Of a stretch of DNA of 35,448 nucleotides, positions 953-33,040 are shown in pieces. The notes beneath the pieces were generated by a model. It was not told the origin of the DNA and did no database searches. It saw only the letters and a list, made by a program, of their open reading frames with translations. Numbering within the stretch: the stretch's first letter is position 1; every line of letters begins with the position of its first letter. The stretch covers positions 1 to 35,448 of the forward strand of contig CAYMLT010000002.1 in assembly GCA_964391265.1 (NCBI GenBank), written 5' to 3'. The translations under genes were made by a program, and so were the position numbers. The DNA comes from an uncultured archaeon (GTDB lineage Archaea; Asgardarchaeota; Thorarchaeia; Thorarchaeales; Thorarchaeaceae).

Positions 953-1824
953 TCCCTCCCAGCAAGTCCTACAATATCCGACACTTTGGAGTATCCCTTT
1001 TCTTGTAGATAGTTTTGTACTCCTTCCTTTACTTTTTCAAAAACATGCATACCGTCCAACAAAGCCGTTCCAATCTGAATTGCACTCGCCCCAGCAAGAT
1101 GCATTTCCACTGCATCTTCCCATGTTGCTATACCACCAACACCAATTATTGGTACATCTAGTGCATTATGGAGATCATAGACACAGCGTACCGCAATAGG
1201 AAATATCGGGGGTCCTGATAACCCACCCAATTTGTTTCCAAGAACAGGACGTTGCTGATGGATATCGATTTTCATAGCTCTCACAGTGTTGATAGCCACA
1301 ATGGCATCGGCTCCTGCCTCTTCGGCAGATTTACCTACCGATACATAGTCCGAGGCGTTAGGAGTTAACTTGGCAAAGACCTTGCAGGTGACAACATCTT
1401 TTACAGCACTAACGTATTCAAAAGTAAGCTCGGGACTGTGTGCAATTTGCGCAATTTCTGCATGAGGGCAAGATAGATTCAGTTCAATGGCATCCGGACC
1501 GTAAGTATTTCCCTTTTCAGCAACTTTGGTCACCTCCTCTACGGACGAACCAAAGACACTCAACACTATTGGCACTCCTGCTTCTTTTAGGGATGTGATT
1601 TCACTTTCAAACATGTCAATACCGGGATTTGTAAGACCAACTGCATTCAGTAGTCCACCATGAGAAGTTGTGAGGACAGGTCCTGAATGCCCCTTTCTGG
1701 GAACCAATCCTATGGACTTTGTAACGATGGCATCAGCACCAGCATCACACACCCGACGCATGACCGAACCAGTTACTCCAAGAATACCAGAAGCCAGCCA
1801 ATAGCCTTCAACTTTCATCTGCAC
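949..1824 (-). CDS. pyrD: dihydroorotate dehydrogenase catalytic subunit PyrD (class 1B)
   Basis: 291-aa ORF with TIM-barrel DHODH motifs (LASGILG, AIVTKSI, LLNAVGLTNPGID, IELNLSCPH, GGLSGPPIFPIA, IIGVGGI). Coupled to pyrK. Confidence 0.9.
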   Translation of the reverse strand: MQMKVEGYWLASGILGVTGSVMRRVCDAGADAIVTKSIGLVPRKGHSGPVLTTSHGGLLNAVGLTNPGIDMFESEITSLKEAGVPIVLSVFGSSVEEVTKVAEKGNTYGPDAIELNLSCPHAEIAQIAHSPELTFEYVSAVKDVVTCKVFAKLTPNASDYVSVGKSAEEAGADAIVAINTVRAMKIDIHQQRPVLGNKLGGLSGPPIFPIAVRCVYDLHNALDVPIIGVGGIATWEDAVEMHLAGASAIQIGTALLDGMHVFEKVKEGVQNYLQEKGYSKVSDIVGLAGRE

Positions 1825-2256
1825 ACCTATTTATCTCACGAAATGAATGTCTGTAATAAGGTTAAGCGACACACAGACACACTTGTGACCAATCTCCTGA
1901 GATGAGTGAACTTCAACTCCGAGATACTTTTGCGTTCTACCCTTCCTCAGACGAACGTCACCGCACTTGCTCAGCATTACCTGAAGGATGTCTGAGGCAT
2001 TATCTACTATCATCGGGATACAATCCCTCCTGCAGATCCGGCTTCTTTCTCCTGCACTACTGGATTCCGTTCTTTCATCTTTACTCAGACAAAAGTTGCA
2101 ATAATCGCTTCACGCTCGTTTGAAGATTGCCTACGTAGCCAAACAGAGCTAAGATATTGGCATCATGAATCCCGGTATCGACCGCAAAAAGAAAAACAGA
2201 GAATACGACACACTTATCCGAATCACACTATGTCCAGAGTCTGGAGATGATGTACA

Positions 2257-3525
2257 ATGGGTACCTATCTGACATTCACCGCATTTGGCGTCTTCCTACT
2301 TGATGAAGATAGCAAAGTTTTAGCTGAACAGATTACATATCCCGACGTGGATGCTTCAGCTGACAATGTCAGGAAAATCAGTGATGGAACTCCCTCTGAC
2401 ACACTGCAGAAAATGTTAGAGCAAGTCAAAGACCATCCAGAACTAGTAGTCGCAGATTCTCGGCTAGCAAAGGCACTGTCACAGATTAGTGATATATCAG
2501 TGAAAGTTGATCCATCCTCGAAAGCCATCAAATGGTTCCTTAGTCAACATGATACACAGATGTTAGAAAGAAAGGTCTCCAAATCATCATCTGACACCCA
2601 GAATTTCCGAAATCAAGTAGGATTGATATTGGCGAAATTCACCGTAAGCGAAGCAGGTGAAGAAAAAGACCCATCCATTAAACATGCTATTGATAGTGTT
2701 GGTGAAATTGACAAATCTATCAATATCATTGCAATGCGCCTTAGAGAGTGGTACTCGCTTCACTTCCCAATACTAACCGAACTTCTTGAAGATCACGAAG
2801 AATACACTCGTGTTGTCAATATCAGTGGCAGAAAATCCAACATGACTCGAGAAAAACTGTTGGAAGCCAAGCTTTCAGAACCCTCAATTGCCCTCGTAGA
2901 AGATGCAGTTGCTAATCTTCTTGGTTCAGATCTCTCTGATGCAGACATGAGTGCTATCGGGACACTATCGGATGTCATTTTAGACCTCTATAAACAAAGA
3001 CGTGTATTGGAAGCCTATGTAACTGATCTAATGGAAGAAGCAGCTCCCAATATCACTTCGTTGGTTGGTCCATTAGTTGGCGCTCGGTTGCTAAGTCTAG
3101 CTGGTTCACTGAAGGAACTCGCACGAAAACCATCAAGCACATTACAAATTTTGGGTGCTGAAAAGGCTCTTTTCAGGAGTCTGAAAACTGGTGCTGACCC
3201 TCCAAAACATGGTGTCATTTTTCAAGTACCTGAAATTCATTCTGCCCCATACTGGCAAAGGGGCAAAATTGCACGAGCACTTGCAGGAAAGCTTTCAATT
3301 GCAGCCCGAATTGATGCATATTCTGACTCGAAGGTAGTTACCGGACTGAGAGAGCAATTTGAGAACCGCCTAGCAGAGATACAACGCCAACATCCAGAAG
3401 CTCCCCCACCAAAACCAAAGCCTCCCAGTAAACTCCAACGAAAACAGAGGCAACAAGGGAGAGGACCTCCAAGAGGAAGGCAAGGAGGTCGGCAAGGTGG
3501 AAGACAAGGAGACCGACGACGATGA
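2257..3525 (+). CDS. nop5: Nop56/58 (Nop5) box C/D snoRNP core protein with RG-rich C-terminal tail
   Basis: 422-aa ORF. NOSIC/Nop domain motifs (AMRLREWYSLHFP, LLSLAGSLKELARKPSSTLQILGAEKALF, PKHGVIF). 4-nt overlap with the fibrillarin gene. Confidence 0.92.
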   Translation: MGTYLTFTAFGVFLLDEDSKVLAEQITYPDVDASADNVRKISDGTPSDTLQKMLEQVKDHPELVVADSRLAKALSQISDISVKVDPSSKAIKWFLSQHDTQMLERKVSKSSSDTQNFRNQVGLILAKFTVSEAGEEKDPSIKHAIDSVGEIDKSINIIAMRLREWYSLHFPILTELLEDHEEYTRVVNISGRKSNMTREKLLEAKLSEPSIALVEDAVANLLGSDLSDADMSAIGTLSDVILDLYKQRRVLEAYVTDLMEEAAPNITSLVGPLVGARLLSLAGSLKELARKPSSTLQILGAEKALFRSLKTGADPPKHGVIFQVPEIHSAPYWQRGKIARALAGKLSIAARIDAYSDSKVVTGLREQFENRLAEIQRQHPEAPPPKPKPPSKLQRKQRQQGRGPPRGRQGGRQGGRQGDRRR

Positions 3526-4220
3526 CCACAATAGCACCTCACAAATTTCCAGGAATCTTCAATGCTACTGACAGAGATAGAACATCCATCTCTACTCAAA
3601 CACTCGTTCCTCGACAGAGTGTCTATGGCGAAAAACTTGTGAAGGAAGGTGGTAAAGAGTACCGTCTATGGGCTCCTAGAAGGTCCAAATTAGCCGCGGC
3701 AATACACAATGGACTCCGAGAGATGCCAATTCAACCTGGTTCTCGTGTACTGTATTTGGGTGCGGCCTCAGGCACTACTGTTAGTCATATATCTGATATT
3801 GTAGGGCCGGACGGAGTTGTTTTTGCTGTCGAGTTCTCTGTACAAGTATCAAGAAAGCTAATCCGACTCGCGGAAACCAGAACGAACATTGTACCAATCA
3901 TTGATGATGCCCGTCATCCTATTCGATATACGGCTTTAGTTGGAGGCCCAATAGATATTGTCTATCAAGACGTAGCTCAATCGGACCAAGCACGAATTCT
4001 TTTGGATAATCTATCAACATTCTGTACCATAGGTGCATGGGGTATGATTGCAGTCAAGGCTCGAAGTATCGATTCCACTTCCAATATTGATGACATCTAC
4101 AGGAAGGAAATCGCAGAACTAGCAGCTGGTGGTACCGAAATAATCGACAATGTAAATCTTGACCCTCTAGAGAAGGACCATCGGTTCATAGTAGTTAGAG
4201 TTGCGGAGGAGCTTATTTGA
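3522..4220 (+). CDS. flpA: fibrillarin, rRNA/tRNA 2'-O-methyltransferase
   Basis: 232-aa ORF. SAM-binding motif VLYLGAASGTTVSHISDIVG and the canonical nop5-flpA gene order. No N-terminal GAR domain. Confidence 0.93.
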   Translation: MTTIAPHKFPGIFNATDRDRTSISTQTLVPRQSVYGEKLVKEGGKEYRLWAPRRSKLAAAIHNGLREMPIQPGSRVLYLGAASGTTVSHISDIVGPDGVVFAVEFSVQVSRKLIRLAETRTNIVPIIDDARHPIRYTALVGGPIDIVYQDVAQSDQARILLDNLSTFCTIGAWGMIAVKARSIDSTSNIDDIYRKEIAELAAGGTEIIDNVNLDPLEKDHRFIVVRVAEELI

Positions 4221-4672
4221 GTCGGTTCATAGAGCGCTTGATCGAAAATGAGATTGACACATCAAATGACCACCTGCCAGCGAAAAGGGTTTCACTTGCT
4301 GAACTAGGTCAACAAACATCTCCAAGCTTTATAACTCGTGGTGGGGAAAGCTCCATCTTTTTGAAAGATGAAATTGATATGCTTGTGGAAGAGGTGCCCT
4401 CCATTTACCACAACGAATTCATGCTTCCAATAGTGCTTCTACGGAGAATGGACTTGGGAACCGGAATCTATACAATCGCTGGTTCGAAGACCGAGCTCTT
4501 TCTAATATCAAAGATTTTAGGACAAGACGATCTACAATGGGAGAACCTGCCTAGCTGGCGTCCGGTTGACAGACTTGCCCGGCCTCAAGTTCAAATAGTC
4601 AGACGAAAACTGCCATCGACAACAAGTCTTGGTTTTACAACTTCTCTAAGTTACGTAGATGACTCTCATTAA
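4217..4672 (+). CDS. UPF0216/DUF61-family archaeal protein (function unknown)
   Basis: 151-aa ORF starting at a TTG that overlaps the flpA stop. Its pattern (NDHLPAKRVSLAELG...P.F..RGG..S.F.KDEIDML...P......LPIVL...G.Y.I.G...E...ISKILG) matches my recollection of the UPF0216 family. Confidence 0.6.
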   Translation: MSRFIERLIENEIDTSNDHLPAKRVSLAELGQQTSPSFITRGGESSIFLKDEIDMLVEEVPSIYHNEFMLPIVLLRRMDLGTGIYTIAGSKTELFLISKILGQDDLQWENLPSWRPVDRLARPQVQIVRRKLPSTTSLGFTTSLSYVDDSH

Positions 4673-6391: not shown

Positions 6392-6525
6392 TTACTATGA
6401 GAAGCTATTTTACAGTCTCGGAGTGGTCTGGATCGAAAGTGATGGTCGCGGAATGCTTCGGCAATGAAATTGACACAGTATATTTCTCGTGAGGGTATAA
6501 CTACGAGATGAAATGAGGTGGGAAA

Positions 6526-6984
6526 TTGAATGGAACGAAATCTAATGTGGTGCCATTGGTAGTAGCAATTGTCGCTCTCTTTTTTCCGATGCTAGTTGGT
6601 ATAGATTTTGACTACTTCGAAGGCACAACGACTATGGTCATTCAGGCAGTCTTTTGGACCATGAATGTCAACGGTGGCAGTACTATTGCCACATTCAACT
6701 TCGTGTATGTCATTATGCGAGTCGCTTTCATTTTGCAGGTGTATAGATACTATCAAGCAAAAACAACAATTAGAAAGGCATTATTTGTCGCACTATTAGC
6801 CGAGCTGCATATACTCGTTGTTTCAATTTTGTTTTACATTTTTACAATAACTTACTTCTATCCAGTAACATATCTTATAATCACTGTTCCAATTCCTATA
6901 CTCTTCATAACTGGTGTTATTCTGTTAGCAGCTATATCTCCCTCGAAAATAGAAGAACATGACAAATGGCTTACTACTCGATAA
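6526..6984 (+). CDS. hypothetical polytopic membrane protein
   Basis: 152-aa ORF with about 4 hydrophobic segments and no recognisable motif. Confidence 0.5.
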   Translation: MNGTKSNVVPLVVAIVALFFPMLVGIDFDYFEGTTTMVIQAVFWTMNVNGGSTIATFNFVYVIMRVAFILQVYRYYQAKTTIRKALFVALLAELHILVVSILFYIFTITYFYPVTYLIITVPIPILFITGVILLAAISPSKIEEHDKWLTTR

Positions 6985-7312
6985 TTGATTCCACAATCGC
7001 TATCAGCCTATGAAAAGGTAGGAGTTTACACTCTTCAAATCAAAGGTTTGGCAATCGATAATGAAAGAAGAAGAAAGTGGCAGCTTTGACCCTTGTCACG
7101 GGCTCGCGCACCGCACATTTGATCAAACGATTCGAGGCTTAATTGCTGAGTTCAGCCGAGATCAGATGACCCCTCGAACCTATGGCCGCCATCAAGACTT
7201 GCCAGAGATTGTTGTGTTTTAAAGCTTACTCTAGAGACAAGAAAAAATCGAGGTGGATAATTCAGCACGTACTGAAACCACTCTCATTTTTCCTTCCCAA
7301 AATTCATTATTT

Positions 7313-10161: not shown

Positions 10162-10371
10162 ATGCAATGGACCAACGAATCACTTGGAATAACAATTGAA
10201 ATCAATGAAGATGACTGTAGCCTTTGCCAAGACCATACCTGCGTTAAGGTATGTGATGTTCTCTCGTTCAGCTATAGTGATGGACATGCACATCCATCAG
10301 CCCTTGAGAAATGCAATGGATGTGGTGAATGTACCGATATGTGTCCGTTTATGGCGATAACTATCAGCTAG
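10162..10371 (+). CDS. small 4Fe-4S ferredoxin-like protein
   Basis: One canonical motif CNGCGECTDMCP and one atypical motif CSLCQDHTCVKVC. The track ORF starts at GTG 10117; ATG 10162 is preferred because GAGGT lies about 8 nt upstream. Confidence 0.65.
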   Translation: MQWTNESLGITIEINEDDCSLCQDHTCVKVCDVLSFSYSDGHAHPSALEKCNGCGECTDMCPFMAITIS

Positions 10372-10396
10372 GACAATCCAACTCGATGAACACTAC

Positions 10397-10414
10397 TTGG
10401 AACATGTGTTCCAA
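10397..10414. promoter_or_regulatory. perfect 18-nt palindrome TTGGAACATGTGTTCCAA
   Basis: 8-nt arms and a 2-nt centre, lying between the ferredoxin gene and the formamidase-family gene. Could be an operator or a hairpin. Confidence 0.3.
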
Positions 10415-10495
10415 ATATTCATTGAGAAAGAACCCATGTGGAGGGCGTCTGGGAATACTTAATTCCAGCATGTTCGTCGTCCTAAGTGATTAATA

Positions 10496-11392
10496 ATGGT
10501 CGATGGAAAGTATCATCGTGTAAGTATGAAGGATGTAGTTTTCAAAGCTGATAGTAGCAATCCTCCGGTTTTGAAAATACAATCAGGAGAAACAGTTGTT
10601 TTCGAATGTCGAGATGCTTTCAATCAAACAATTCAGAAATCTACTGATTTGCCAATCAATTTCGATATGGAAAGAATAAACCCTGCTACAGGTCCAGTGT
10701 ATGTCGAAGGTGCAGAACCCGGAGATACTTTGGAAGTTCACATTTTAGAAGTTGATGTTGCAAAACAAGGATCTTGTTGTATAATCCCGAGTTTTGGTTA
10801 TCTTGTTTCTGAATTTCCTGAACCTTGGACTAGAATAATCCCTATAGAAGATGGAAAGGCCATATTTAGTGAAATAGTGAAAATTCCCATAGATCCTTTT
10901 CCAGGCACTCTGATTGTAGCACCTGCCGAGGGTTCTCATGGGACGCTTATTCCAAGAGAATATGGTGGCAACATGGATTCACGTGCCTGTAAGGCTGGAA
11001 CCATTGTCTATCTACCAGTTTTTGTCAAAGGAGCTCTATTTGGTGTTGGTGACGTGCATGCAGTTCAAGGTGACGGCGAAGTCTGTGGGACAGCAGTAGA
11101 AATTGATGCCAATGTCACAATAAAACTAGTAGTCAATAAGACTAAGAAAATAGAACGACCCCAATATGAAACGGATGAACATTTCATGACTACTGCTTGG
11201 GGTGAAACAACTGAAGATGCTGCGAAAATTGCCCTGAGGGATATGATTGAGTGGCTGGTTGCTGAAAAGGGAATGACACGCGAAGAAGCATACGCTCTTT
11301 GTAGCTGTGCTGTCGATATGAGAATCAGCCAGCTTGTTGATATCACTCCAGGAGTAAGAGCGGTCCTTCCAAAATCAATCTTCAAGAGGTAG
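10496..11392 (+). CDS. acetamidase/formamidase (FmdA/AmdA) family amidohydrolase
   Basis: 298-aa ORF with family-typical motifs (NPATGPVYVEGAEPGDTLEV, GGNMD, GDVHAVQGDGEVCGTAVE). Confidence 0.8.
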   Translation: MVDGKYHRVSMKDVVFKADSSNPPVLKIQSGETVVFECRDAFNQTIQKSTDLPINFDMERINPATGPVYVEGAEPGDTLEVHILEVDVAKQGSCCIIPSFGYLVSEFPEPWTRIIPIEDGKAIFSEIVKIPIDPFPGTLIVAPAEGSHGTLIPREYGGNMDSRACKAGTIVYLPVFVKGALFGVGDVHAVQGDGEVCGTAVEIDANVTIKLVVNKTKKIERPQYETDEHFMTTAWGETTEDAAKIALRDMIEWLVAEKGMTREEAYALCSCAVDMRISQLVDITPGVRAVLPKSIFKR

Positions 11393-11397
11393 AGAAA

Positions 11398-11967
11398 ATG
11401 GCAGAGAAAAAGCGTTGTGACTGGGTACCTCTGGACAATCCACTTTATGTAAAGTATCATGACGAGGAATGGGGAGTTCCTGTTCATGATGACAGATTGT
11501 TATTTGAGTTCCTTTTGCTTGAAGGATTTCAGGCTGGATTGAGTTGGATCACGATTCTGAGGAAACGAGAGAATTACAAACAAGCTTTCGATAATTTTGA
11601 TGCAAAGAAAATTGCATTGTATGATGCAAAGAAAATTGAAGAGCTGATGCAAAACAGTGGAATCGTCAGGAATCGGAGAAAAATTGAATCTGCGATCATA
11701 AATGCGAAAGCGTTTCTTGAAGTGCAGAAAGAATATGAATCATTTAACAAGTACATTTGGGGATTTGTTGGTGGAACGCCTATTGTGAACAAATGGAAGA
11801 AACTAGAGGGAATTCCTGCAAACACAGAATTATCTGACAAGATTAGCAAAGATTTGAAACGAAGAGGCTTCAAATTCGTCGGATCTACCATTATCTACGC
11901 ACATATGCAGGCGACTGGAATGGTAAATGACCACACAGTTGACTGTTTCAGATATAATCAAGTATGA
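11398..11967 (+). CDS. tag: DNA-3-methyladenine glycosylase I
   Basis: 189-aa ORF. Tag signature RCDWV...YHDEEWGVPVHDD..LFE.L.LEGFQAGLSW and a C-terminal H..C zinc ligand region. Confidence 0.9.
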   Translation: MAEKKRCDWVPLDNPLYVKYHDEEWGVPVHDDRLLFEFLLLEGFQAGLSWITILRKRENYKQAFDNFDAKKIALYDAKKIEELMQNSGIVRNRRKIESAIINAKAFLEVQKEYESFNKYIWGFVGGTPIVNKWKKLEGIPANTELSDKISKDLKRRGFKFVGSTIIYAHMQATGMVNDHTVDCFRYNQV

Positions 11968-11984
11968 TTTGTTCCAATCTAGGC

Positions 11985-12018
11985 AAAATAAGAATGGCAC
12001 TGAGGATGAGATGTGTTC
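11985..12018 (-). repeat. tRNA-Ser 3'-exon-derived att-like repeat, copy A (distal)
   Basis: aaaataagaaTGGCACTGAGGATGAGATgtgttc. Matches the tRNA copy at 17586..17618 with 2 mismatches in the 18-nt core, and retains 6 nt of the T-loop intron. Confidence 0.8.
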
Positions 12019-12085
12019 AGAAATAGCAAAACATACATATTCTGAATTCTTCCTCTGGTTACTATAAAGGTGGTATGAGTCCGAT

Positions 12086-12313
12086 TTGACCAAGAAACGA
12101 GTACTTGCTGCTATATTCCTTATCACAGGTACAGTATTCTTTTTGGATGAGCTTTGGATGCTCGGAGTTCCATTCGGACATATTCTTCCGGATTTAAGTC
12201 AATTTCACATTGCACCATTCGGAATAGAGTATCACCACTGGATGACCGGAGTGATTCTATTGATACTGGCTCTATTTCTTTTCGACCGTGACCGTAAAAG
12301 TGAAGTCGGATAG
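12086..12313 (+). CDS. hypothetical small 2-TM membrane protein
   Basis: 75-aa ORF with a TTG start, two hydrophobic helices and GGTGG upstream. Confidence 0.4.
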   Translation: MTKKRVLAAIFLITGTVFFLDELWMLGVPFGHILPDLSQFHIAPFGIEYHHWMTGVILLILALFLFDRDRKSEVG

Positions 12314-12399
12314 AAGACAGCGTTGCACAATCTCATATTCTCCATTCTGAAAACAAGCAAATGAAATATCATCTTTAGTGAAGGAGTGCGGGTTTTATG

Positions 12400-12425
12400 A
12401 AAAGAAATGGCGCCAAGGATGAGAT
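12400..12425 (-). repeat. tRNA-Ser 3'-exon-derived att-like repeat, copy B
   Basis: aaaagaaaTGGCGCCAAGGATGAGAT, 1 mismatch to the tRNA core. Lies 1 nt from the stop codon of the minus-strand nitroreductase-like gene. Confidence 0.8.
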
Positions 12426-12426
12426 T

Positions 12427-13206
12427 CTATTTAATTCTGTATCTTGCAATTTCTGGATAATCAAGGAAATCCCAATTTCCCTTGACACCGGATACAAGTG
12501 CTCCCAACTCAAGATGCAGCATGGCAATACCACAATCAAGCCGTCTAGATATACCGAGTCCTTCTCTCTTGCTATTGGATGACACAGTAATTGCACTATC
12601 GTTGATTTGAAATCTCCAAGGTTGCCTATTTCCAGCTGAGGGCGCAATCCTGGCTGCCTCTAATGCAGCCATACTCCAATTGTTATCACTTACTTCTCCA
12701 CTAACAATGAGATTATCAAGCATCTTTCGTCGGTACTCTTTCGACGAAACTCCCACTCTGTCTTTTTCTTCCTTTGAATATCCAATTGGTGTGATGCCTA
12801 ATACTCGTTCCTTATCTTCCAGATCAATCTGTTTTATCACAGAGTCACGTCGATAAAACCCTCCGACCCAGCATGTATTCAGACCAAGGGCTGTCGCTTC
12901 TAGGATAATTCCTTCTCCAAGATATCCCATAGCTGCTTGTACATTCGGTGCATCCATATCACCAATGAATGTGATATAGTATGGAGTTTCTTTGACTTTG
13001 TAGAAGAACTCACCCACAGCTCCCTTGAAAACATCCTTTCCAGAATCCCTCACAAGGACTGCTCTTGCACCAGGAAAGGGTCTGAAATTGTTGCAAATGC
13101 TTTCAATTCTCGAAGTCACTTCATCATCTGGCATCTCACCAGAATACACTCTATGAGAGTGTCTAAGGGATATTGCATCGTACCATGAATTAACAGGAAT
13201 ATCCAA
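12427..13206 (-). CDS. nitroreductase-fold protein (two-lobed, TM1586-like arrangement)
   Basis: 259-aa ORF. N-terminal AISLRHSHRVY and LGLNTCWVGG motifs, plus a second lobe with ARIAPSAGNRQPWRF. Confidence 0.7.
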   Translation of the reverse strand: MDIPVNSWYDAISLRHSHRVYSGEMPDDEVTSRIESICNNFRPFPGARAVLVRDSGKDVFKGAVGEFFYKVKETPYYITFIGDMDAPNVQAAMGYLGEGIILEATALGLNTCWVGGFYRRDSVIKQIDLEDKERVLGITPIGYSKEEKDRVGVSSKEYRRKMLDNLIVSGEVSDNNWSMAALEAARIAPSAGNRQPWRFQINDSAITVSSNSKREGLGISRRLDCGIAMLHLELGALVSGVKGNWDFLDYPEIARYRIK

Positions 13207-13267
13207 AATTTAGCACCAACTAGCTTATCTATTGCCTTCAAAGTAGATTAGTGTCTGCTATTGCGGC

Positions 13268-13291
13268 AAAAGGTGGCGCCGAGGAAGAAAC
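13268..13291 (-). repeat. tRNA-Ser 3'-exon-derived att-like repeat, copy C
   Basis: aaaaggTGGCGCCGAGGAAGAAAC, the most diverged 3' part. It overlaps a local hairpin CCGAGgaAGAAACactgGTTTCTCTCGG at 13279..13306. Confidence 0.7.
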
Positions 13292-13419
13292 ACTGGTTTC
13301 TCTCGGAGCGCAAATTCTAGGTATACTTGATGGAACTGATCTTTTGTTTTCTTGAAATAAGATTAGTCTTTATTAGAGGGAACTTGTGTAATGTTTACAG
13401 AAGTTGGAGGCTGATACGA

Positions 13420-13716
13420 ATGACAATATCGACCATAGTAATTACATTGATAGACAAGAAGGGGGCTCAAAGCATCATGGAACAGGTTCTCTCATTGCCA
13501 GGTGTCAAAGAGGCATTCATTCTTGATGAAATGATGCTAATGTTCCTGAAGCGAACGGGAGTCAAGTTCTTTGAACTATCCGAAAATGAAGAACAACTCC
13601 AGATTAGTGGAAACTTTGAATCGGTAGAAGATTTCAAAGCATATACAGAAGCCTTGCGGAACATAGAAGGTGTCAAAGAAGTGAAAGGCATGCAGGTTCC
13701 TGAGGGATATAACTGA
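13420..13716 (+). CDS. hypothetical 98-aa alpha/beta protein (possibly Roadblock/LC7-like; weak)
   Basis: ATG 13420 is preferred over the track start at 13327 because GGAGG lies 9 nt upstream. The pattern IMEQVLSLPGVKEAFILDE is reminiscent of Roadblock/MglB or ACT-like small domains; no firm assignment. Confidence 0.45.
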   Translation: MTISTIVITLIDKKGAQSIMEQVLSLPGVKEAFILDEMMLMFLKRTGVKFFELSENEEQLQISGNFESVEDFKAYTEALRNIEGVKEVKGMQVPEGYN

Positions 13717-13742
13717 TACTCATGTCATAGGATACCTAAATG

Positions 13743-13771
13743 AAAAATAAGAATGGCGCCGAGGAAGAGAT
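13743..13771 (-). repeat. tRNA-Ser 3'-exon-derived att-like repeat, copy D
   Basis: aaaaataagaaTGGCGCCGAGGAAGAGAT, 2 mismatches to the tRNA core. Confidence 0.8.
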
Positions 13772-13834
13772 TTGAGTCCTATAGGCTTTTTAGATTTCTA
13801 ATGTATGTATTAGCGTGATGAGGGCAATGGTACA

Positions 13835-15223
13835 ATGACTTTCAGGGTATACTACACGAAGTTTGATGGGAAGAAGGGATACTCACCTAGTTCTCCCAAC
13901 ATCGACTTATCCTCCAAGTTAATCAAGGAAATTGACCTTTCATGCTTCTCAGAAAATTGCCACTTGCAGGAAATCAAACTAGACGACAACTATCTTGAGA
14001 ATATTGATCTCACTCCTCTGTCCAACTGTAACAACTTGCAGGATATCCATCTAGGTGGAAACAGACTAGAGAGAATCGACCTAACCCCTCTCGCGGAGTG
14101 CTCAAACTTAAGAAATCTCTTACTAGCTAGTAACTCTCTGGAAACCGTGGATCTCAGTCCCCTTGTCCACTGCACATATCTGAAACGCCTCCTTCTGAAC
14201 AACAACCAGCTTGAGAGCATTGATCTGTCCCCTCTCTCTGCTTGTAAGAACCTATGGCAACTTGGCCTTTCCGAAAACAAAATGAAGCGCATAGATTTAG
14301 CACCTCTTGCAAATTGCACAGAACTGAGTTTACTCTGCCTACCTACTAGCCATCTGCTGCAAAGTATTGACCTTGAACCCATCTCAAGATGCAGTTTGAG
14401 AAATATCTCATTTGGGAAATACCTTCCCCATAGTATTGATTTGACCCCTCTCGTATTTTCTGATAGACTAGATCGACCATCACTCCTTGTTAGAAACCAA
14501 CCTTCTTGGCTTAAAACTAAGACAAAATCCAGCGAGTTTGATCGGAATACTCGTAGGTACATCATGTCCCGTTATGGTACATATCACAGACCCACACGAA
14601 TCTATTCCTGGCAATTTCTCCACAGGGTTGTACAAGAGTATGGAACTGACCATCGTGTGCAGCAGGATGTCTTACTGGCCATGGGCTTAGGCGGCTACGG
14701 TTTCATCAATGCTGATCTCAGAACCGCGCTCCTATCCATTTCTTGTGAGAAATCTATTAACGACGCTCGTGAACACATTCTACCCATCATCCTAAAAGAG
14801 ATAGATAATGCCATAGACCAAGGTGGTTGCACAACTGGCTTAGATATTGAAAAACTCTCTACTCAGAAAGGAGAAATTGTCGTCAGGACCAAGCAAATCA
14901 TCCACAACAGGGAACGAGAACTAAAACGTGTGAGGGTCGGTCTCAAATTTAGACGGGTCGATCTCAGGGAGTTGTATCTCACAGCTTACGGATATGAGAT
15001 TCTTAATGCATTGGATATGGGTTTGGAATCAAACTTGGGAGGGTTCGAGCAAATCCAACAGGCTTCTGCTGACTTAGGTTACGATATCAAGACAGCTGAC
15101 AAATCAGAGTCAGGTGTAAATATGAGCGATGAGCTAAAACAGGCCATCTGGTGGATTGTAGAGAATCGTGGGCGGTCATGGCATGAGATAGTATCAAGAA
15201 GTGGCGCCGAGGATGAGAATTAA
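13835..15223 (+). CDS. leucine-rich-repeat protein with uncharacterised C-terminal domain
   Basis: 462-aa ORF. About seven 24-aa LRR units (C.NL..L.L..N.LE.IDL.PL) with a 72-nt DNA periodicity around 13.95-14.45 kb. The C-terminal ~230 aa have no recognised motif. The last codons and the stop lie inside or directly after repeat E. Confidence 0.8.
   Translation: MTFRVYYTKFDGKKGYSPSSPNIDLSSKLIKEIDLSCFSENCHLQEIKLDDNYLENIDLTPLSNCNNLQDIHLGGNRLERIDLTPLAECSNLRNLLLASNSLETVDLSPLVHCTYLKRLLLNNNQLESIDLSPLSACKNLWQLGLSENKMKRIDLAPLANCTELSLLCLPTSHLLQSIDLEPISRCSLRNISFGKYLPHSIDLTPLVFSDRLDRPSLLVRNQPSWLKTKTKSSEFDRNTRRYIMSRYGTYHRPTRIYSWQFLHRVVQEYGTDHRVQQDVLLAMGLGGYGFINADLRTALLSISCEKSINDAREHILPIILKEIDNAIDQGGCTTGLDIEKLSTQKGEIVVRTKQIIHNRERELKRVRVGLKFRRVDLRELYLTAYGYEILNALDMGLESNLGGFEQIQQASADLGYDIKTADKSESGVNMSDELKQAIWWIVENRGRSWHEIVSRSGAEDEN
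15196..15220 (-). repeat. tRNA-Ser 3'-exon-derived att-like repeat, copy E
   Basis: aagaagTGGCGCCGAGGATGAGAAt. The core is identical to the tRNA copy over 17 nt. It encodes the last residues (SGAEDEN) of the LRR protein. Confidence 0.85.
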
Positions 15224-15646
15224 ACTTGTGAGCAGGTATTTTTTACAGAAAAATGTTAGCCTTTGCTCGAAGCCGTTGTACCAATTTTCGACATAATTTG
15301 GCTAATAGCCCACCATAGACCCCCTACTACACATTCTCTAGGTTATCATACCTTCTTTTTCGCCATGAGGGGACTCAAAGTATCAACCTTCTTTGAATGA
15401 CCGCTATTGCTGGAGCACAATCATTCCCTTAACACCTAAACATTGCATGGTTACTATAATTAGTAGAACAGATTGGAGAGAGGTCCAAGAACAGGGAGTT
15501 ATCATAGAATGACCAGTAAGAAACTAGGACATCCCCGTCACAGGGGGACGCTACTTCGGCATCACCTTACTTGTGATGGAGATTTTGGGGAGCTTAAGAT
15601 ACCTATCAAGATACAACAATATGAAACAAAAGAAGGAACATGAATA

Positions 15647-17581
15647 TTGGTAGAATTTAGAGAATATGATGACTCAGATGAAGGGGCCCGTCCGGAAGAA
15701 ATAGTAGAAATGCTGGATGAATATAATGCATCAGTGCTCTCTGGGGAACAATGTGAGGAGTTGTTACGGGCTGCTGATATCGAAACAAGGTGGAGCGAAG
15801 ACGATTATCTAGATGCGCTGGAAAACAATCCTCAGGTACGATTGGAAGAATATTTTGAAAGGGAAGATGCGCTGGCACGGTACTACTTCAAGCTAGAGAA
15901 AGGAATGGCCGGCTCCTATGCGAAGATTGCGGAAGGATGTGCCGTGTCTGTTTCCCGTGGAACCATTGGAAATTGGGAGAAAGGAATGGAACCTAGGATA
16001 ATCCCAAGGCTACGTAGACATTCCACAAACTGCTTGGGCGATTACACACCTCTCCAACAAGCAGAGGGTGCAAAGGTAACTCGAATATCAATATCCACTC
16101 TAACTGACGACTCTTCAACAGATGACAATCGGGAAAACCATTGGGAAACTTTTGCCACAGAACTGGCGGATGATATCGAAAAGGTCCAGCTGAAGGAATC
16201 ACGAGTTGTTTCAGTTGATCTCGAAGATAAATACGACATTTCCACTGAGAATCTAAGGGACTTGGAATATATAATCCAGCAAAGAATCGATGCTCCCTCC
16301 CTCAAAGTTGGATTCATTGACGGCACACTCTATGTCTGGAACCCCGATACTAATCCACTGGAATTGATAAACGCCTACCAAGATTCGCACTTCTATTTTC
16401 GTGATAAGAACGAACTTGCAGGATTCATTGCTGAGGTCAAAAATGTCCTCACAGGTACCAGTGGGGGAGGACTGTTTTCCACTATCGAGAATCTCAATGG
16501 ATTGTTATATCAAATATTCCCGGAACATGATGAAGGACCTTTCATAGATATAAAACGTACAAAGCTTCAAGGCCAATTCTTTCACTTATTGATTGACCTG
16601 ACAGGCCGAACATTATCGGATTTTGAAGGAAGGATCTCAAAGATTACTGGTCAAAATGGGCAGAATGGCATAGAGAATCCGAGATTCATTGAAGGAAAAG
16701 AACTGAGGAGAGCGCTGGCAAAAACAATAGCAGTGGTAATTAGCGATGGATTCTTGGGGAATTGTGGTCGAGTTTACTTTTCCGAACCTGACTTGAAACG
16801 AATAGGGATTGTAGAGAACAATCTGAGGAATTTTGGAGGTATTTCTCTGAACTACTGGTCGGACCCCCGAGCCAACTGTTTCACATCATCCTTTCCAACA
16901 GTGTTAGGTAATGCCCTTCTGCATGTCGGTTTGTGTGCAGGTAATAAGACCCTGAATAATCCAGAATTACCCAACTGGCTAATAGAAGAAGAATGGGATA
17001 TACTGTGTGACTTCTTTGGGGAACTTATCCCACAAGATGGCACTGTCACTCTATCAAGGATATCATGGACTCATACATGTGCACTACATCCCGGAAAGGA
17101 GATTCAGGAATATCCAAAAGCAGCAATCATCTCTGATGCAGAGATTGAACTAATTCAACAAGAAGGAACGAGAGGGAAGAAATACATCACGTTGAATCTA
17201 TCTGACCTTGAACTTCTCAGAAAATCAGAAGATACAGAAACTGCATCACTTGCTTCAAAATTAATGATAAACGTATACCAAAATCCAAACAACTTCGTAA
17301 TGGCTGAAAAGAAAATGGCTGAAAGGCTTGGCATTAAGGTAGAGGTCGACCCATATTCGATTAAATACCATTACAAGACTCAAAGAGTTTCAGTTGCATG
17401 GGATGCCAGAACGGCAGGCACTGATGAAATGATCAGGATGGCAATAATAGCCCCTCCAAATGACATTCACAAACGAGAAGTTGTGAAAGAAGGGCTACTG
17501 CAAAACCAAGAATCAGTCCAACAAGTACTCCAGAAATTGAATGAGAAAAAGCGCCAAATAATAAAATGGTGGATGCTCTAA
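15647..17581 (+). CDS. large HTH-containing protein with double LAGLIDADG-like (homing-endonuclease-fold) C-terminal region
   Basis: 644-aa ORF with a TTG start; the next in-frame ATG is at 15710. HTH-like segment SYAKIAEGCAVSVSRGTIGNWEKG. Two LAGLIDADG-like motifs, LAKTIAVVISDGFLG and LCDFFGELIPQDGTV, separated by ~90 aa. The motifs LPNWLIEEE and ERLGIKVEV match HE-domain conventions. Assignment is by eye only. Confidence 0.55.
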   Translation: MVEFREYDDSDEGARPEEIVEMLDEYNASVLSGEQCEELLRAADIETRWSEDDYLDALENNPQVRLEEYFEREDALARYYFKLEKGMAGSYAKIAEGCAVSVSRGTIGNWEKGMEPRIIPRLRRHSTNCLGDYTPLQQAEGAKVTRISISTLTDDSSTDDNRENHWETFATELADDIEKVQLKESRVVSVDLEDKYDISTENLRDLEYIIQQRIDAPSLKVGFIDGTLYVWNPDTNPLELINAYQDSHFYFRDKNELAGFIAEVKNVLTGTSGGGLFSTIENLNGLLYQIFPEHDEGPFIDIKRTKLQGQFFHLLIDLTGRTLSDFEGRISKITGQNGQNGIENPRFIEGKELRRALAKTIAVVISDGFLGNCGRVYFSEPDLKRIGIVENNLRNFGGISLNYWSDPRANCFTSSFPTVLGNALLHVGLCAGNKTLNNPELPNWLIEEEWDILCDFFGELIPQDGTVTLSRISWTHTCALHPGKEIQEYPKAAIISDAEIELIQQEGTRGKKYITLNLSDLELLRKSEDTETASLASKLMINVYQNPNNFVMAEKKMAERLGIKVEVDPYSIKYHYKTQRVSVAWDARTAGTDEMIRMAIIAPPNDIHKREVVKEGLLQNQESVQQVLQKLNEKKRQIIKWWML

Positions 17582-17585
17582 TTGG

Positions 17586-17618
17586 AAAAAAGGATGGCGC
17601 CGAGGATGAGATGTGTTC
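17586..17618 (-). repeat. tRNA-Ser 3'-exon att-like repeat, copy F (the functional tRNA 3' end plus trailer)
   Basis: aaaaaaggaTGGCGCCGAGGATGAGATgtgttc. On the minus strand this is intron end / T-stem 3' strand / acceptor 3' strand / G73 / CCA / T-rich trailer. Confidence 0.85.
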
Positions 17619-17742
17619 GCCTTGACTGATTGTCAAAGGCATTGAACTCATGCATCCGAAGATACCGGTTAACCTGGTCTGAGAGTGCATAACACTCCAA
17701 TTTTCAAGACCGGCGCCGTAATCCGGGCTTGGCTACCTCGGC
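17595..17742 (-). tRNA. tRNA-Ser(UGA) with two predicted introns and an encoded CCA
   Basis: Minus strand. Acceptor GCCGAGG pairs perfectly with CCTCGGC. D arm GCC-AAGCCCGGATTAC-GGC. Anticodon stem CCGGT/ACCGG with loop CTTGAAA, interrupted after position 37 by ~32 nt. Long variable arm TATCTTCGGATGC. T stem ATGAG/CTCAT with loop TTCAA..AT, interrupted by ~29 nt (hairpin GCCTTTGAC/GTCAAGG). G73 then CCA. 148 nt genomic, about 87 nt mature. Confidence 0.8.
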
Positions 17743-20440: not shown

Positions 20441-22753
20441 TTACTTTTGAAATGGTGCGTTCGTTTGAATGTATCCGTTCGGAGAAACAATTTGCCTGAC
20501 AACTTCCGGAAGGTTCCACTTGAGGTCTAGTTCCAATGCACCGCCTTCTGTGCCCGGACATCTTCTTACACAGGTTCTGCATCCAACACAGAGCCAGAGA
20601 TCTACTTCAATTGTTCCAAATCCTGGTTTTTGCTCATTGAGTCTTATTTGGGAGGTTGGCTTGACCGTTGCAAGGGACCTGACGGTCTTGTAAAACATTG
20701 CCTTGTTTACAAGCTGTTTTTCAATCTCCTCGTCCGTCAATTCAAAGAACTTGGGTACGTCGATAACTGGTTTGAGTTTGATAGCATCCTCTGGACATGC
20801 AATTTCACATGACTTGCACCCGACACACTTTCCAAAGTCCCACTCAATTGTACCAAAACCTAGGAGTGGGGCATATCCCATCATACCTCGGTATTCCTCC
20901 AGTACAGATGGAACGTCAACATCTAGCAAGTCTTCAATTGTGACCTTGGGTCGCGTGCTTGGGAGTCGTGCTCGAGTTCGATAGCCCATTGAAACCGATG
21001 ACTTGATTGTTTCTTCTACGCTCGAAAGAATGTCCTTTCCAACTACCGTTCCATCTATTGTGATTGACTCCATTTTATCACGTGACTTAGAGAAGATCTC
21101 AAGAGCACTTGTAAGTCTGCCAATTGTTCCAGGAGTAAGATCGGAGAGAATCTCTCGAAGCTCAGCTCCAGCCTGAGCAGTCTGAGATGCCAGATTACAG
21201 GCAGTCTGAATTGCAATTTCTGCTTCGTTCAGTGTTCTCGGGACATCATATAGAATATACCCATGCTCTTCGCCAGCAATGGTCAGCAACTCATCACGTT
21301 TCATCCGTAGTAAGTGTTGTAAAACTCTATCTTGCGGAATCCTAGACTTTTCAGCAAGATCTTTTGTAGTCATTGCTCCAATCTCTCTGATTAGAATGAG
21401 CAAAGTTCCTCTCTCAAGCTCGGTAACGAGATAATTATCCATAATCTGTTTGTATTTCTCAGAATCAAGCTGTTCTCCATAGGCATTAAGCCCAGAAACC
21501 AAGTTTGGTCCTTTCTCAAGCGTGATTTTCAATCTGAATCTTGTAAAGGCCTCAAGACCTGCTGATACTAGAAGACGAAGCTCATCTGAATCTTCGGAAG
21601 ATCCCGAACTTATGGCCGCTTCTGTAGCCTTTTCGACAACTTCTCGGAGATTGGTCACAGACTCAGAGAGAGCAGTTTCATCATACGCTCCTAATAGCTG
21701 AAGTCGCTCAAGAACACCCTCAAGCTGCTCTAGAGGTTCTTGGATGATCGATTTACTTGAGTCATCCAGTGTTTTTACTATTCCGCGAAGCTGCTGAACG
21801 ATATGTTTCACAACAAGTGTTGTGTCTGGTGTCGTGGTAAGAACCTTAGCAAAGACAGGAGCATCGCCATCAAGTCCGACCATTTCCACTTCGCTTCGGC
21901 CAATCATGCTAACAATTGCATTCTGTACATCTTTTGGAGATATTCCCATAGATTCCCCTAATTGTACAGCCGTTTTGGATCCCATTTTCTCCAGCACAAA
22001 CATGATGATGCCACGGCGAAGTTCTACGAGAAGGTTTGTGCGAATCAAGTCCCCGAAACGGGTATCATCTATTCTCCCATCTCTTTTTCCTCTCTTTAGC
22101 TGTGCCGCAATTCGAAGAAATGGACCATATCGGGTCTTGGTTCCCAATTTCTGTAGTCCCGTCAGTGAAGCATCTGGGTCTGAATTCAGATCTGAAGTCA
22201 GTGAGGCAAAGGATTCGGTCAGAACCTCTAGTTCTTTCATTGCTTCTTCCTCATCTGCTTTTGCCTTCTCCTCAAAGCCGCTAATAATTGCTTGAATGCT
22301 AGAAATAAGGTCCCCTACTGGTTTTAGAATCCCTGATACATCTCCCGCTGAATCATCTTGGGTAGTATCTTCTTTCTCTGCCATGGAATCAAGGATAGTC
22401 TTCAGAGTTTCAAGTAGGCCCGTTAACGCTGATGAATCGCCCTTAGAAAGTGCAGCCTCAAGATTTCCTATAGCTTCAGTAAGAACACCTCTATCGGAAA
22501 GCGAACTACCAAGACCTGCCTTCTTTACAGTATCAAGGAATGCTTGGAAGTATCTCTCTGGAAATTCAAGAATCTCTGCCGTGAGGGGTTCAATATCCTG
22601 TTTCAACTTAGAGATTTCTTCATTCACTTTGCTAAGGGGAACAGCAGTTTCCTCTTTGAGTCCACCAAGTACCAACATCATATCCATCATGCGTTGTCTC
22701 TTGGGCGCACTCGCCTTTGCAACTACATCGCCACTCATTTCTCTGTCTCCCAT
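20441..22753 (-). CDS. large uncharacterised protein: helical N-region, two winged-helix-like modules, C-terminal 2x[4Fe-4S] ferredoxin domain
   Basis: 770-aa ORF. Internal duplication (NLLVELRRGIIMFVLEKMGSKTAVQLGESMGISPKDV versus NYLVTELERGTLLILIREIGAMTTKDLAEKSRIPQDRV). Motifs CVGCKSCEIACPEDA and CVGCRTCVRRCPG lie ~65 aa apart. The start is either 22753 or 22738; the latter forms an ATGA overlap with the hdrA stop and has GGGAG upstream. Confidence 0.75.
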   Translation of the reverse strand: MGDREMSGDVVAKASAPKRQRMMDMMLVLGGLKEETAVPLSKVNEEISKLKQDIEPLTAEILEFPERYFQAFLDTVKKAGLGSSLSDRGVLTEAIGNLEAALSKGDSSALTGLLETLKTILDSMAEKEDTTQDDSAGDVSGILKPVGDLISSIQAIISGFEEKAKADEEEAMKELEVLTESFASLTSDLNSDPDASLTGLQKLGTKTRYGPFLRIAAQLKRGKRDGRIDDTRFGDLIRTNLLVELRRGIIMFVLEKMGSKTAVQLGESMGISPKDVQNAIVSMIGRSEVEMVGLDGDAPVFAKVLTTTPDTTLVVKHIVQQLRGIVKTLDDSSKSIIQEPLEQLEGVLERLQLLGAYDETALSESVTNLREVVEKATEAAISSGSSEDSDELRLLVSAGLEAFTRFRLKITLEKGPNLVSGLNAYGEQLDSEKYKQIMDNYLVTELERGTLLILIREIGAMTTKDLAEKSRIPQDRVLQHLLRMKRDELLTIAGEEHGYILYDVPRTLNEAEIAIQTACNLASQTAQAGAELREILSDLTPGTIGRLTSALEIFSKSRDKMESITIDGTVVGKDILSSVEETIKSSVSMGYRTRARLPSTRPKVTIEDLLDVDVPSVLEEYRGMMGYAPLLGFGTIEWDFGKCVGCKSCEIACPEDAIKLKPVIDVPKFFELTDEEIEKQLVNKAMFYKTVRSLATVKPTSQIRLNEQKPGFGTIEVDLWLCVGCRTCVRRCPGTEGGALELDLKWNLPEVVRQIVSPNGYIQTNAPFQK

Positions 22754-31009: not shown

Positions 31010-31373
31010 TACATATCCTCCGAACTACATTTTCATCCTGCAAGTGCCTGATTAATCCTTTCTATTTAATGAGCCTAAGAAGCTTGCTCTCTTTTTCAGT
31101 GAGCGGAATGCCTTATAGATTATGCTTCTACTTATGATATAATCTCCCATCAATCCAATTAGTTCCTTTGCTAATGCTAATTTCATTTGTAAATTGACCT
31201 CTTACCTTCTCACATTTTACCAGTTGATGGTATTAAGATTCAAATCAAATCGCATCTGAAGACCGTGGTTGTCAAAGCCACACGATGTTAATAGAAAGAT
31301 TGAATATGCACCAAGAGTAGTTTTGTAAACACTCATTAAATCATCTCGAAAATGTGGTCGCGGGGAGAAAATA

Positions 31374-32843: not shown

Positions 32844-32952
32844 CTCCGGATTTCCATCAGGCTCACAAAGGTTATGTCAGATAAATAGGAAAGTCACCAT
32901 CATTATATTATCCATTGATTCAGAAAATCAAGAGCCTTTGCCATTGAAACTC

Positions 32953-32980: not shown

Positions 32981-33040
32981 TCTAAAATATTCGGAATGTA
33001 GCTTCGTATATCAAAGCATAGAGCCCTGAAGAGTTACTTT

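Follow-up and report, generated by a model that had tools for sequence, protein, structure and literature searches.

How do single genes come to stand in a row behind a tRNA gene when no integrase is seen there? This question is raised by a 35,448 nt stretch of DNA from an uncultured Asgard archaeon of the Thorarchaeaceae (contig CAYMLT010000002.1 of assembly GCA_964391265.1, forward strand), which as a whole is called the window here. Between tag, a glycosylase gene, and a tRNA-Ser(UGA) gene on the minus strand it carries five small units, each with one substantial open reading frame (ORF), which are delimited by copies of the 3' end of this tRNA. A preliminary description, made from the letters alone, had recognized the array and offered two explanations, an integron-like platform using a tRNA-derived recombination site or a stack of heavily decayed serial integrations. 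The reading that we favour, and to which we give an even chance, is an array of single-gene cassettes on the 3' end of tRNA-Ser(UGA) that works without an integrase, by nuclease-initiated and homology-guided exchange.

The repeat consists, on the tRNA-sense strand, of the 3' strand of the T-stem, the 3' strand of the acceptor stem, G73 and CCA, followed by a T-rich trailer. A search with TGGCGCCGAGGATGAGAT at up to three mismatches gives six matches on the plus strand (11995, 12408, 13274, 13754, 15202 and 17595), and beyond those six none elsewhere across 35 kb. Shuffled sequences let one expect 0.03 matches, and six were reached in none of 100 shuffles. A repeat finder and an nhmmer profile recovered the same copies, with spacings of 413, 866, 480, 1448 and 2393 nt. 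Thus, the six copies in a single orientation, their places and the intervals of about 0.4, 0.85, 0.45, 1.4 and 2.4 kb given in the preliminary description could all be confirmed. The unspliced tRNA gene is called neither by ARAGORN nor by Rfam at gathering threshold, because two introns interrupt it. After removal of both introns in silico ARAGORN calls an 87-nt tRNA-Ser(tga) with encoded CCA; therefore copy 6 (17612-17595) is the genuine 3' exon of the minus-strand gene, as had been proposed.

The individual copies differ in origin. Copy 1, the outermost, holds the 3' exon with two substitutions (GCACTG) and GTGTTC from the T-loop intron; the same 6 nt, already noted for this copy in the preliminary description, are found at copy 6. 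On the left it is flanked by sequence collinear with the L001 tRNA trailer (L001 is a relative with an empty site, see below), and its homology extends over about 33 nt to the window's own tRNA allele and over 32 nt to the top-scoring allele, that of L001. Copy 1 is evidently the original tRNA 3' end, displaced. Copy 2 has counterparts distal to the nitroreductase gene in L072, L016/17, L013, L025 and L028. Copy 4, with 31 nt of homology and its best match in the intron-free L023 allele, extends into an intron-free T-loop and is therefore not derived from the resident intron-bearing allele. Copy 5 matches an allele without T-loop intron over 35 nt, compared with only 17 nt for the resident allele. 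Substitutions in the acceptor strand occur in copies 1 and 2, and copy 3 is substituted as well. One earlier statement has to be corrected: not every internal repeat lies near a stop codon, as copy 3 adjoins the start of the inverted nitroreductase gene.

To see the locus in other genomes, we used the archease gene next to the tRNA, which retrieved nine genome loci, all from Thorarchaeota and allies, and an archease profile, which retrieved 64 further metagenome loci. This makes 73 related loci (numbered with L) and, with the window, 74 sources. In the closest relative, L001 (about 88% nt identity, ranging over about 85-91%), the sequences to either side of the block run collinear with those of the window, 12019-17590 is lacking and tag directly adjoins the tRNA. 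Window positions 11388-12018 correspond to L001 4604-5227 and 17591-22702 to L001 5200-10313, with an overlap of 28 nt in L001. Because L001 is collinear without 12019-17590 and the two alignments share 28 nt, the 5.6-kb block appears clearly as an insertion flanked by a 28-nt target duplication. Direct repeats of a tRNA 3' end and an empty site in relatives, both to be expected of a tRNA-targeting element, are thus found here.

Across the 73 related loci the frame Elp3–tRNA-Ser–archease is conserved and the interval from Elp3 to the tRNA is variable. Archease adjoins tRNA-Ser wherever the contig reaches, and in L007-L009 and L021 Elp3 directly adjoins the tRNA. Two to six copies of the repeat are present in 21 of the related loci (22 of the 74 sources if the window is counted), and every copy has the orientation of the tRNA and lies on its 3' side. 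Homologues of the nitroreductase occur in 22 tRNA-Ser island loci, often with a distal copy just past the stop codon and, at the start, either the tRNA or a further copy. FmdA, a formamidase, forms in L031 a 990-nt unit between two copies, and the order of nitroreductase and FmdA in L014 differs from that in L012 and L031. The cargo further comprises tag, thiolase, hydrolases, an epimerase, a LigT-like protein, rhodaneses, tetratricopeptide repeat (TPR) and leucine-rich repeat (LRR) proteins as well as defence-like proteins (PLD/DrmC-like, HerA-like). L072 has the TPR unit of L014 as well, succeeded there first by a truncated copy, TGGCACCG, and next by a unit with an HNH nuclease gene.

Even more telling are direct comparisons between loci. 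The window unit 12405-13288 is 88.5% identical to L072 365-1250, from copy to copy, compared with 78% in the archease flank. L011 3910-6315 and L031 4743-7148 match over 2406 nt with 99.5% identity, the match being delimited exactly by copies, and their flanks are only 85% (FmdA), 90% (HNH gene to tRNA) and 95.5% (downstream) identical, with differing neighbour units. This 2.4-kb unit encodes an SLFN/AlbA_2 protein and a 374-aa PD-T7-5-like protein. In five pairs of occupied and empty sites or of alternative cassettes the breakpoints lie within copies, among them L004/L003 (1.9 kb), L005/L006 (1.1 kb, epimerase) and L070/L021 (1.7 kb, rhodaneses, 29-nt overlap); L018 and L012 hold alternative cassettes in the same slot. 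The comparison of syntenic loci that the preliminary description had called for thus found cassettes present, absent and reordered, and, as in integrons, mostly single-ORF cassettes are common to several arrays. Judged from these alignments, gain, loss, swapping and transfer among Thorarchaeota genomes each concern one unit at a time. As a side observation, the stretch from the tRNA trailer to the HNH gene contains a TATA-like motif, CAGCTTTTATTCTCATAC, in L016, L036 (2541-2600) and L072 (2984-3043). L016 has it twice (1122-1181 and 2197-2256), with a duplicate that stands together with a copy upstream of the nitroreductase gene, as if promoter and repeat were travelling together.

These comparisons also bear on the most trivial explanations, a generic terminator-like motif, 3' halves of split tRNAs or an artefact of assembly, which we regard as extremely improbable. 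A T-rich run does follow each copy on the tRNA-sense strand, as a terminator would have it, but throughout the 74 sources copies lie solely on the 3' side of this tRNA, and the pairs of empty and occupied sites come from independent assemblies; the terminator and artefact readings were rejected on these grounds. A split or trans-spliced tRNA was rejected as well, as there is no complementary leader and substitutions are seen in copies 1, 2 and 3, those of copies 1 and 2 affecting the acceptor strand.

Which enzyme might move the units? No Phage_integrase or other recombinase Pfam hit was obtained for window ORFs of at least 110 aa. Neither tyrosine or serine recombinases nor DDE transposases were found by Pfam in representatives of about 40 island gene families, and scans of protein subsets with PHROG, NCBIfam and PADLOC likewise gave no recombinase; very divergent integrases could evade the profiles used. 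The earlier impression that no tyrosine or serine recombinase is visible therefore holds for the window and extends to these families. An own integrase, intact or partitioned, such as a tRNA-targeting element should have, was not found with Pfam, PHROG or NCBIfam. No cognate integrase-bearing element at the same att site was detected in the 74 tRNA-Ser loci or in IMG/VR, the remainders of the genomes not having been searched. IMG/VR held no contig with a plausible attP and no relative of the HNH family described below; its one exact 18-mer match was rejected as an attP, since it lies inside an acidic ORF and was judged to be due to chance.

The repeats do not behave as attC sites either. Five of the six copies fold no better than shuffled sequences (z between +0.46 and +1.38, and -0.16), and Rfam gave no hit on the copies. 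Only copy 3 with its right flank (13279-13306) forms a 12-bp hairpin, CCGAGGAAGAAAC/GTTTCTCTCGG (z = -2.8), which resembles an acceptor/T-arm minihelix and is lacking in the other copies and in the L072 counterpart; an attC-like nature of the repeats was therefore rejected. Thus, of the two explanations offered at the outset, the integron-like platform describes the behaviour well, with single-gene units bounded by copies that are present, absent or reordered and one of which moved alone. As to membership it fails, for there is no IntI gene, no attC hairpin and the genes within the units have mixed orientation.

The other explanation, a stack of serially integrated proviruses or plasmids each cut down by deletion to about one gene, is in our opinion very unlikely. 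Substitutions in copies 1 and 3 would fit decay, and so would some larger units, an 8-kb multi-gene unit with a HerA-like ATPase in L051 and a 3.4-kb unit with four ORFs in L011. However, the units are compact and mostly filled by intact ORFs, fragments of integrase, capsid or replication genes are lacking, the one-gene units are found complete and reordered in other genomes, and one 2.4-kb unit moved recently.

The main rival is an integrase acting in trans, and unassisted homologous recombination (see below) and decayed proviruses are less likely than this. The units would then be passengers flanked by att sites, similar to cis-mobilizable elements (CIMEs) or leftovers of tycheposons, moved by a tyrosine integrase with crossover in the T-loop that could reside at another chromosomal site, on a plasmid or in a virus. 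We take this seriously, although it appears clearly less probable than the favoured reading. The stretch covered by the copies, T-loop to CCA with the trailer, is what integrases crossing over in the T-loop typically have as identity block, the copies all have a single orientation, and serial accretion with partial-tRNA separators is known for tycheposons (10.1101/2020.12.28.424599) and CIMEs (PMC5704250). On the other hand, neither an integrase nor a fragment of one was seen in the 74 sampled islands and about 40 gene families, whereas integrase-bearing elements are common at such sites in Prochlorococcus, and the lack of a plausible attP in IMG/VR points in the same direction.

Two protein families come into question as initiators instead. 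The first, fam21, is a protein of about 330 aa present at nine of about 65 tRNA-Ser loci. In eight of these it is free-standing and always in the tRNA-adjacent unit, and in L051 it is fused inside the 8-kb unit. At its N-terminus it has two helix-turn-helix (HTH) modules, besides a tandem pair of CxxC…H…N…CxxCH…H (HNH) motifs, and it matches PHROG families of HNH endonucleases (2.3e-13 for residues 8-194 and 5e-6 for residues 206-315); the fused version of L051 matches Pfam HNH (PF01844). The distribution is patchy: L036 and L056 have the gene and L050 and L003 have not, at 88-89% flank identity, so that fam21 is sporadic at one fixed site in close relatives, just as homing endonucleases are. 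A profile search extended the family to at least 122 clusters, nearly all from Thorarchaeota, with 2-6 HTH repeats. To our knowledge, no characterised homing endonuclease combines two tandem HNH domains with 2-6 HTH repeats.

Furthermore, members of this HNH family adjoin tRNA genes at six of the seven distinct genomic sites examined. The arrangement found at tRNA-Ser thus recurs at other tRNAs of Thorarchaeota. A 1.4-kb unit of L080, bounded by tRNA-Thr(CGU) on one side and by 23 nt copied from the tRNA-Thr 3' end on the other, is filled by a member of the family. The tRNA-linked features of L080 span 833-4305 and include, at 833 and 2306, a second pair of 3' ends, from a tRNA with a Leu-like acceptor end. 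In L090 (1956-3690) an HNH gene lies between two tRNA-Ser(CGA)-like sequences, and in L077 (5769-6583) a 182-aa ORF separates tRNA-Leu(CAG) from a decayed copy, 49 nt long, of the tRNA-Leu 3' end.

The second candidate is E5, the 644-aa protein encoded in the tRNA-proximal unit of the window and, among the tRNA-Ser loci, in this window only. At full length it had no match in Pfam, NCBIfam, PHROG, PADLOC and PDB sequence searches. For its C-terminal 430 residues an exhaustive HMMER search found 291 representative homologues, compared with one relative in a word-index search. AlphaFold2 (AF2) modelled the C-terminal module from a 20-sequence alignment with a predicted local distance difference test score (pLDDT) of 91.9 (36 from the single sequence), and Foldseek matched this model almost exclusively to LAGLIDADG homing endonucleases, on top the Tli VMA intein endonuclease (1e-5), I-Tsp061I (1.4e-5, TMt 0.60), PI-SceI and I-DmoI. 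The double motifs read IAVVISDG and GELIPQDG, with acidic and glycine positions conserved in the family. The suspicion that part of this protein is LAGLIDADG-like is thus borne out by model and fold comparison, and predicted nuclease folds with catalytic residues, as homing endonucleases have them, are found in E5 (LAGLIDADG) as well as in fam21 (HNH). That the E5 family is tied to tRNA genes as the HNH family is was considered and rejected, as three other members lie away from RNA genes; because of this, the role of E5 is less certain than that of the HNH family. One 614-aa family member (L087 3001-4845) directly follows RNase HII. L087 and the window (6392-7300) share the neighbourhood fibrillarin–DUF61–HTH–RNase HII, and where L087 has the E5 relative, a 152-aa ORF is found in the window together with a lone minus-strand 5S rRNA gene (7075-7193).

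According to the favoured reading, a cassette would be one gene with a T-rich trailer and a tRNA copy from T-loop to CCA (about 20-60 nt). Cassettes would be inserted, deleted and replaced by recombination inside the tRNA-derived copies, through homology-guided break repair or gene conversion against a donor array. The conserved tRNA body would serve as the long homology arm and a short 3'-end copy, the first suitable one to anneal, as the other arm, and one or several cassettes could be transferred per event. The incoming DNA would bring a fresh tRNA 3' end and the old end would move outward as a repeat. The initiating breaks would most likely be set by site-specific nucleases riding as cassettes in the tRNA-proximal slot, the HTH–2×HNH endonuclease in nine other loci and the LAGLIDADG-fold protein (15647-17581) in the window.

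We infer repair by homologous recombination rather than an unseen site-specific recombinase, because the extents of the copies vary and the exchanged tract reaches 5' of the T-loop. Copies measure from 17 to 60 nt; some end at the T-loop, others take in its intron completely. In the window, the alleles from which copies 4 and 5 stem have no T-loop intron, unlike the resident gene. In L005/L006 the variable arm and both T-stem strands of the tRNA differ from those of the sisters L003/L004, and the displaced copy retains the ancestral CTCAC; therefore the exchanged tract runs 5' of the T-loop. This is the one clade in which a change of the tRNA body, such as the co-conversion of homing should bring about, is linked to the gain of a cassette. 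For an integrase in trans it would be difficult to account for boundaries that include 6 nt of the intron, the whole intron or none, for a tRNA that changes 5' of the T-loop along with the gain of a cassette, and for a recently moved unit that is internal and not at the tRNA.

The same variability would also be compatible with no dedicated enzyme at all, that is with host homologous recombination on DNA from relatives, for which tRNA and copies provide portable homology and the nucleases are cargo or selfish genes. Archaea of the Sulfolobus type recombine with 10-30 nt of homology. Besides the variable copy lengths and a conversion tract that reaches into the tRNA, the replacement of cassettes at internal slots is in line with this, and so is the mosaic tRNA itself, with 54 distinct alleles in 64 loci and an identical allele in L005 and L056, the flanks of which are only 85% identical. 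We nevertheless consider it rather unlikely, less so than decayed proviruses, as it leaves three things unexplained, the presence of two unrelated nuclease families in the tRNA-proximal slot, the link between the HNH family and tRNA genes at six of seven sites and the origin of the first duplication at a virgin tRNA.

Several points weigh against a nuclease-initiated exchange. Cutting of the tRNA-Ser gene by the candidate nucleases is a supposition, most arrays, including that of the window, have no HNH gene, the three E5 relatives mentioned do not adjoin RNA genes, and E5 could be a WhiA-like DNA-binding protein or mere cargo. The argument from the conversion tract comes from one clade, and for the majority of copies the limit is the 5' edge of the T-loop (TTGAA). 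This is what tyrosine integrases with T-loop crossover, as Williams reportedly described in 2002, classically display as an identity block from T-loop to CCA. A target lying wholly within the mature tRNA would persist after insertion, which leaves the self-immunity of the nuclease unexplained, and how a new gene first acquires its flanking copies is not explained either. Finally, the data are metagenome assemblies, in which the 99.5% identical unit could reflect strain mosaics at short repeats.

The tRNA gene deserves attention of its own. It is hypervariable, and its alleles have an intron at position 37/38 (anticodon loop), one in the T-loop, both or none; for some alleles an intron at the junction of variable arm and T-stem is an equally good reading of the 37/38 insert. 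Intron content differs in spite of 92-95% identical flanks in L011/L031, L044/L052 and L003/L004. The 32-nt intron of the window (17670-17701) contains a second, alternative 3' strand of the anticodon stem and a variable arm. Such alternative parts are of type TTCTTCGGAAGC or type GTGTTCGCAC, followed by a D-arm-like GCCAAGCC, and the same layout is seen in L059, L002, L004, L048 and other tRNA-Ser alleles; the L004 intron contains the variable arm of its sister L003. Because they hold an alternative stem strand and a variable arm, this suggests that the 37/38 introns may be relics of replaced tRNA parts. Introns and variable arm indicate that the tRNA gene itself is undergoing recombination.

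Taking this one step further leads to a more daring proposal, which we put forward only tentatively, as clearly less probable than the reading above. In Thorarchaeota, a lineage-specific family of nucleases with HTH repeats and tandem HNH domains (and, convergently, LAGLIDADG proteins) would target tRNA genes and drive an integron-like gene capture without tyrosine recombinase, each cassette bringing a replacement tRNA 3' end. The recurrent replacement of the 3' part would yield tRNA introns, a thought that we base on the second anticodon-stem strand and variable arm held by the anticodon-loop introns.

The features of the island in the window are compiled in Table 1. The inverted nitroreductase-like and the LRR protein that had been described could both be verified by Pfam. 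For the 75-aa ORF of unit 1 and the 98/129-aa ORF of unit 3 no homologues were found, and exact look-ups for population variants of the contig found its proteins as singletons on one NCBI contig. The LRR ORF runs through copy 5 (15200-15223): its last seven codons, SGAEDEN, and its stop codon come from the tRNA-derived repeat together with the bases next to it. The end of the protein is thus read from copy 5, and the insertion site therefore shapes its C-terminus. That the block between tag and the tRNA is an accessory island was correctly seen; its left limit has to be moved, as the variable part extends to the end of Elp3 at 10083. FmdA and tag then represent, by comparison of the loci, the older, distal part of the same variable island, which runs from Elp3 to the tRNA.

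Table 1. Location of repeat copies, units, tRNA gene and distal genes in the window.
Feature	Position	Strand	Remarks
FmdA-type formamidase	10496-11392	+	Pfam
tag glycosylase	11398-11967	+	Pfam
Copy 1, outermost	11985-12018	-	native trailer, 3' exon, 6 nt of T-loop intron
Unit 1	12019-12398	+	75-aa ORF 12086-12313, possible small membrane protein; no homologue
Copy 2	12399-12427	-	1-2 nt past nitroreductase stop codon
Unit 2, TM1586-type nitroreductase	12427-13206	-	on the strand of the tRNA; Pfam TM1586_NiRdase 4.5e-44
Copy 3	13268-13291	-	3 mismatches; trailer TTGCGGCAAAAG travels with nitroreductase unit
Unit 3	13327-13716	+	129-aa ORF (98 aa from ATG 13421); no homologue
Copy 4	13743-13775	-	reaches T-loop (TTGA) of an allele without T-loop intron
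Unit 4, leucine-rich-repeat protein	13835-15223	+	462 aa; Pfam LRR_8 8.7e-17
Copy 5	15193-15228	-	reaches T-loop and 5' T-stem strand of an allele without T-loop intron
Unit 5, tRNA-proximal, protein E5	15647-17581	+	644 aa; predicted LAGLIDADG fold, residues ~200-644
tRNA-Ser(UGA) with T-rich trailer (17585-17594)	17585-17742	-	exons 17742-17702, 17669-17642, 17612-17595
T-loop intron	17641-17613	-	29 nt
Intron at position 37/38	17701-17670	-	32 nt

Two observations concern other parts of the window. At 32945-32981 on the plus strand lies an orphan, degenerate tRNA-Ser-like fragment from T-arm to CCA, GAGTTCGAATATCATTCTCGGTACCA, with no matching 5' half nearby. It adjoins a stretch of low GC content (36-37% compared with about 43%) in the region 30500-33500, with the ORFs 31561-31905 and 31902-32843, the latter without hit in a Pfam scan. 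Fragment and stretch may be another insertion scar. Moreover, near the 5' end of a minus-strand ORF for a 770-aa ferredoxin-domain protein (20441-22753), L001 has about 2.7 kb more (10313-12987) than the window, which has 5 nt at this point (22702-22708); the additional DNA may represent a further gene or an intein-like insert.

How does the locus relate to known systems? The nearest in logic are the tycheposon islands of Prochlorococcus, which use a few tRNA anchors including tRNA-Ser(TGA) (Hackl et al., bioRxiv 10.1101/2020.12.28.424599). The tRNA anchor, separators of partial tRNAs, newcomers that push older elements outward and adaptive or defence cargo are common to both. Tycheposons, however, measure several kb, with a recombinase of their own (tyrosine or large serine type) and in many cases a replication module; here, in an Asgard archaeal host, the units are mostly one gene (0.4-2.4 kb), no recombinase was found in the 74 sampled islands and the only candidates for mobility are the HNH and LAGLIDADG nucleases. 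With integrons, including those of archaea (Ghaly et al. 2022, PMC9668308), the locus shares cassettes of mostly one gene, a repeated recombination site, a fixed platform and shuffling between genomes. It differs by the lack of IntI, by tRNA 3' ends in place of attC hairpins, by mixed gene orientation and by an essential tRNA gene, not attI/Pc, as platform. CIMEs, known together with accretion at att sites (PMC5704250), are likewise integrase-less, att-flanked segments in tandem at a tRNA-type site, but they are defined by a cognate integrative and conjugative or integrative and mobilizable element with integrase at the same site, which was found neither in the 74 loci nor in IMG/VR. The locus thus follows the logic of tycheposon islands, integrons and CIMEs and lacks their defining feature, the cognate recombinase, and in comparison with integrons also attC.

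With free-standing homing endonucleases it has the type of nuclease and the sporadic distribution in common. T4 SegB lies in a tRNA region and MobE shows trans-homing (PMC2790892, PMC13096335), and HeimM2 is an element with a homing endonuclease beside a tRNA-Arg in a Heimdallarchaeum (PMC8813620). As in these, an HNH or LAGLIDADG gene sits sporadically in an intergenic slot by RNA genes and neighbouring DNA is probably transferred along with it, and the HTH-plus-HNH layout of fam21 matches that of phage HNH endonucleases. In contrast to them, a tRNA 3' segment is duplicated here and cassettes without nuclease accumulate. Another comparison is with the SSV- and pNOB8-type 'gene capture' that She et al. 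are said to have described in 2001, where integration into archaeal tRNA genes reportedly brings in several genes and leaves a split or intact gene for a tyrosine integrase. The 3' part of an archaeal tRNA is duplicated around the insert and foreign genes are kept over long times in both cases, whereas here neither a split nor an intact tyrosine integrase gene was seen and the units are not multi-gene.

What sets the locus apart is an architecture without integrase, of single genes and associated with nucleases, its occurrence in Asgard archaea and its link to the dynamics of tRNA introns. Asgard archaea have large genomes rich in accessory genes and few mechanisms of gene flow are known for them; this locus shows one such route in concrete form, and one that recurs. 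Single genes of metabolic, surface or defence-like character use a tRNA gene, essential and highly conserved, as a portable landing pad at which cassettes are exchanged between species; in the 74 islands examined no integrase was detected. Should the process indeed be driven by the HNH and LAGLIDADG nucleases, this would represent a new enzymology for cassette capture and a family of modular HTH–HNH nucleases with long targets. The hypervariable introns, finally, make an old idea testable, that the introns and the fragmentation of archaeal tRNA genes arose from, or as a protection against, mobile elements that target tRNA genes.

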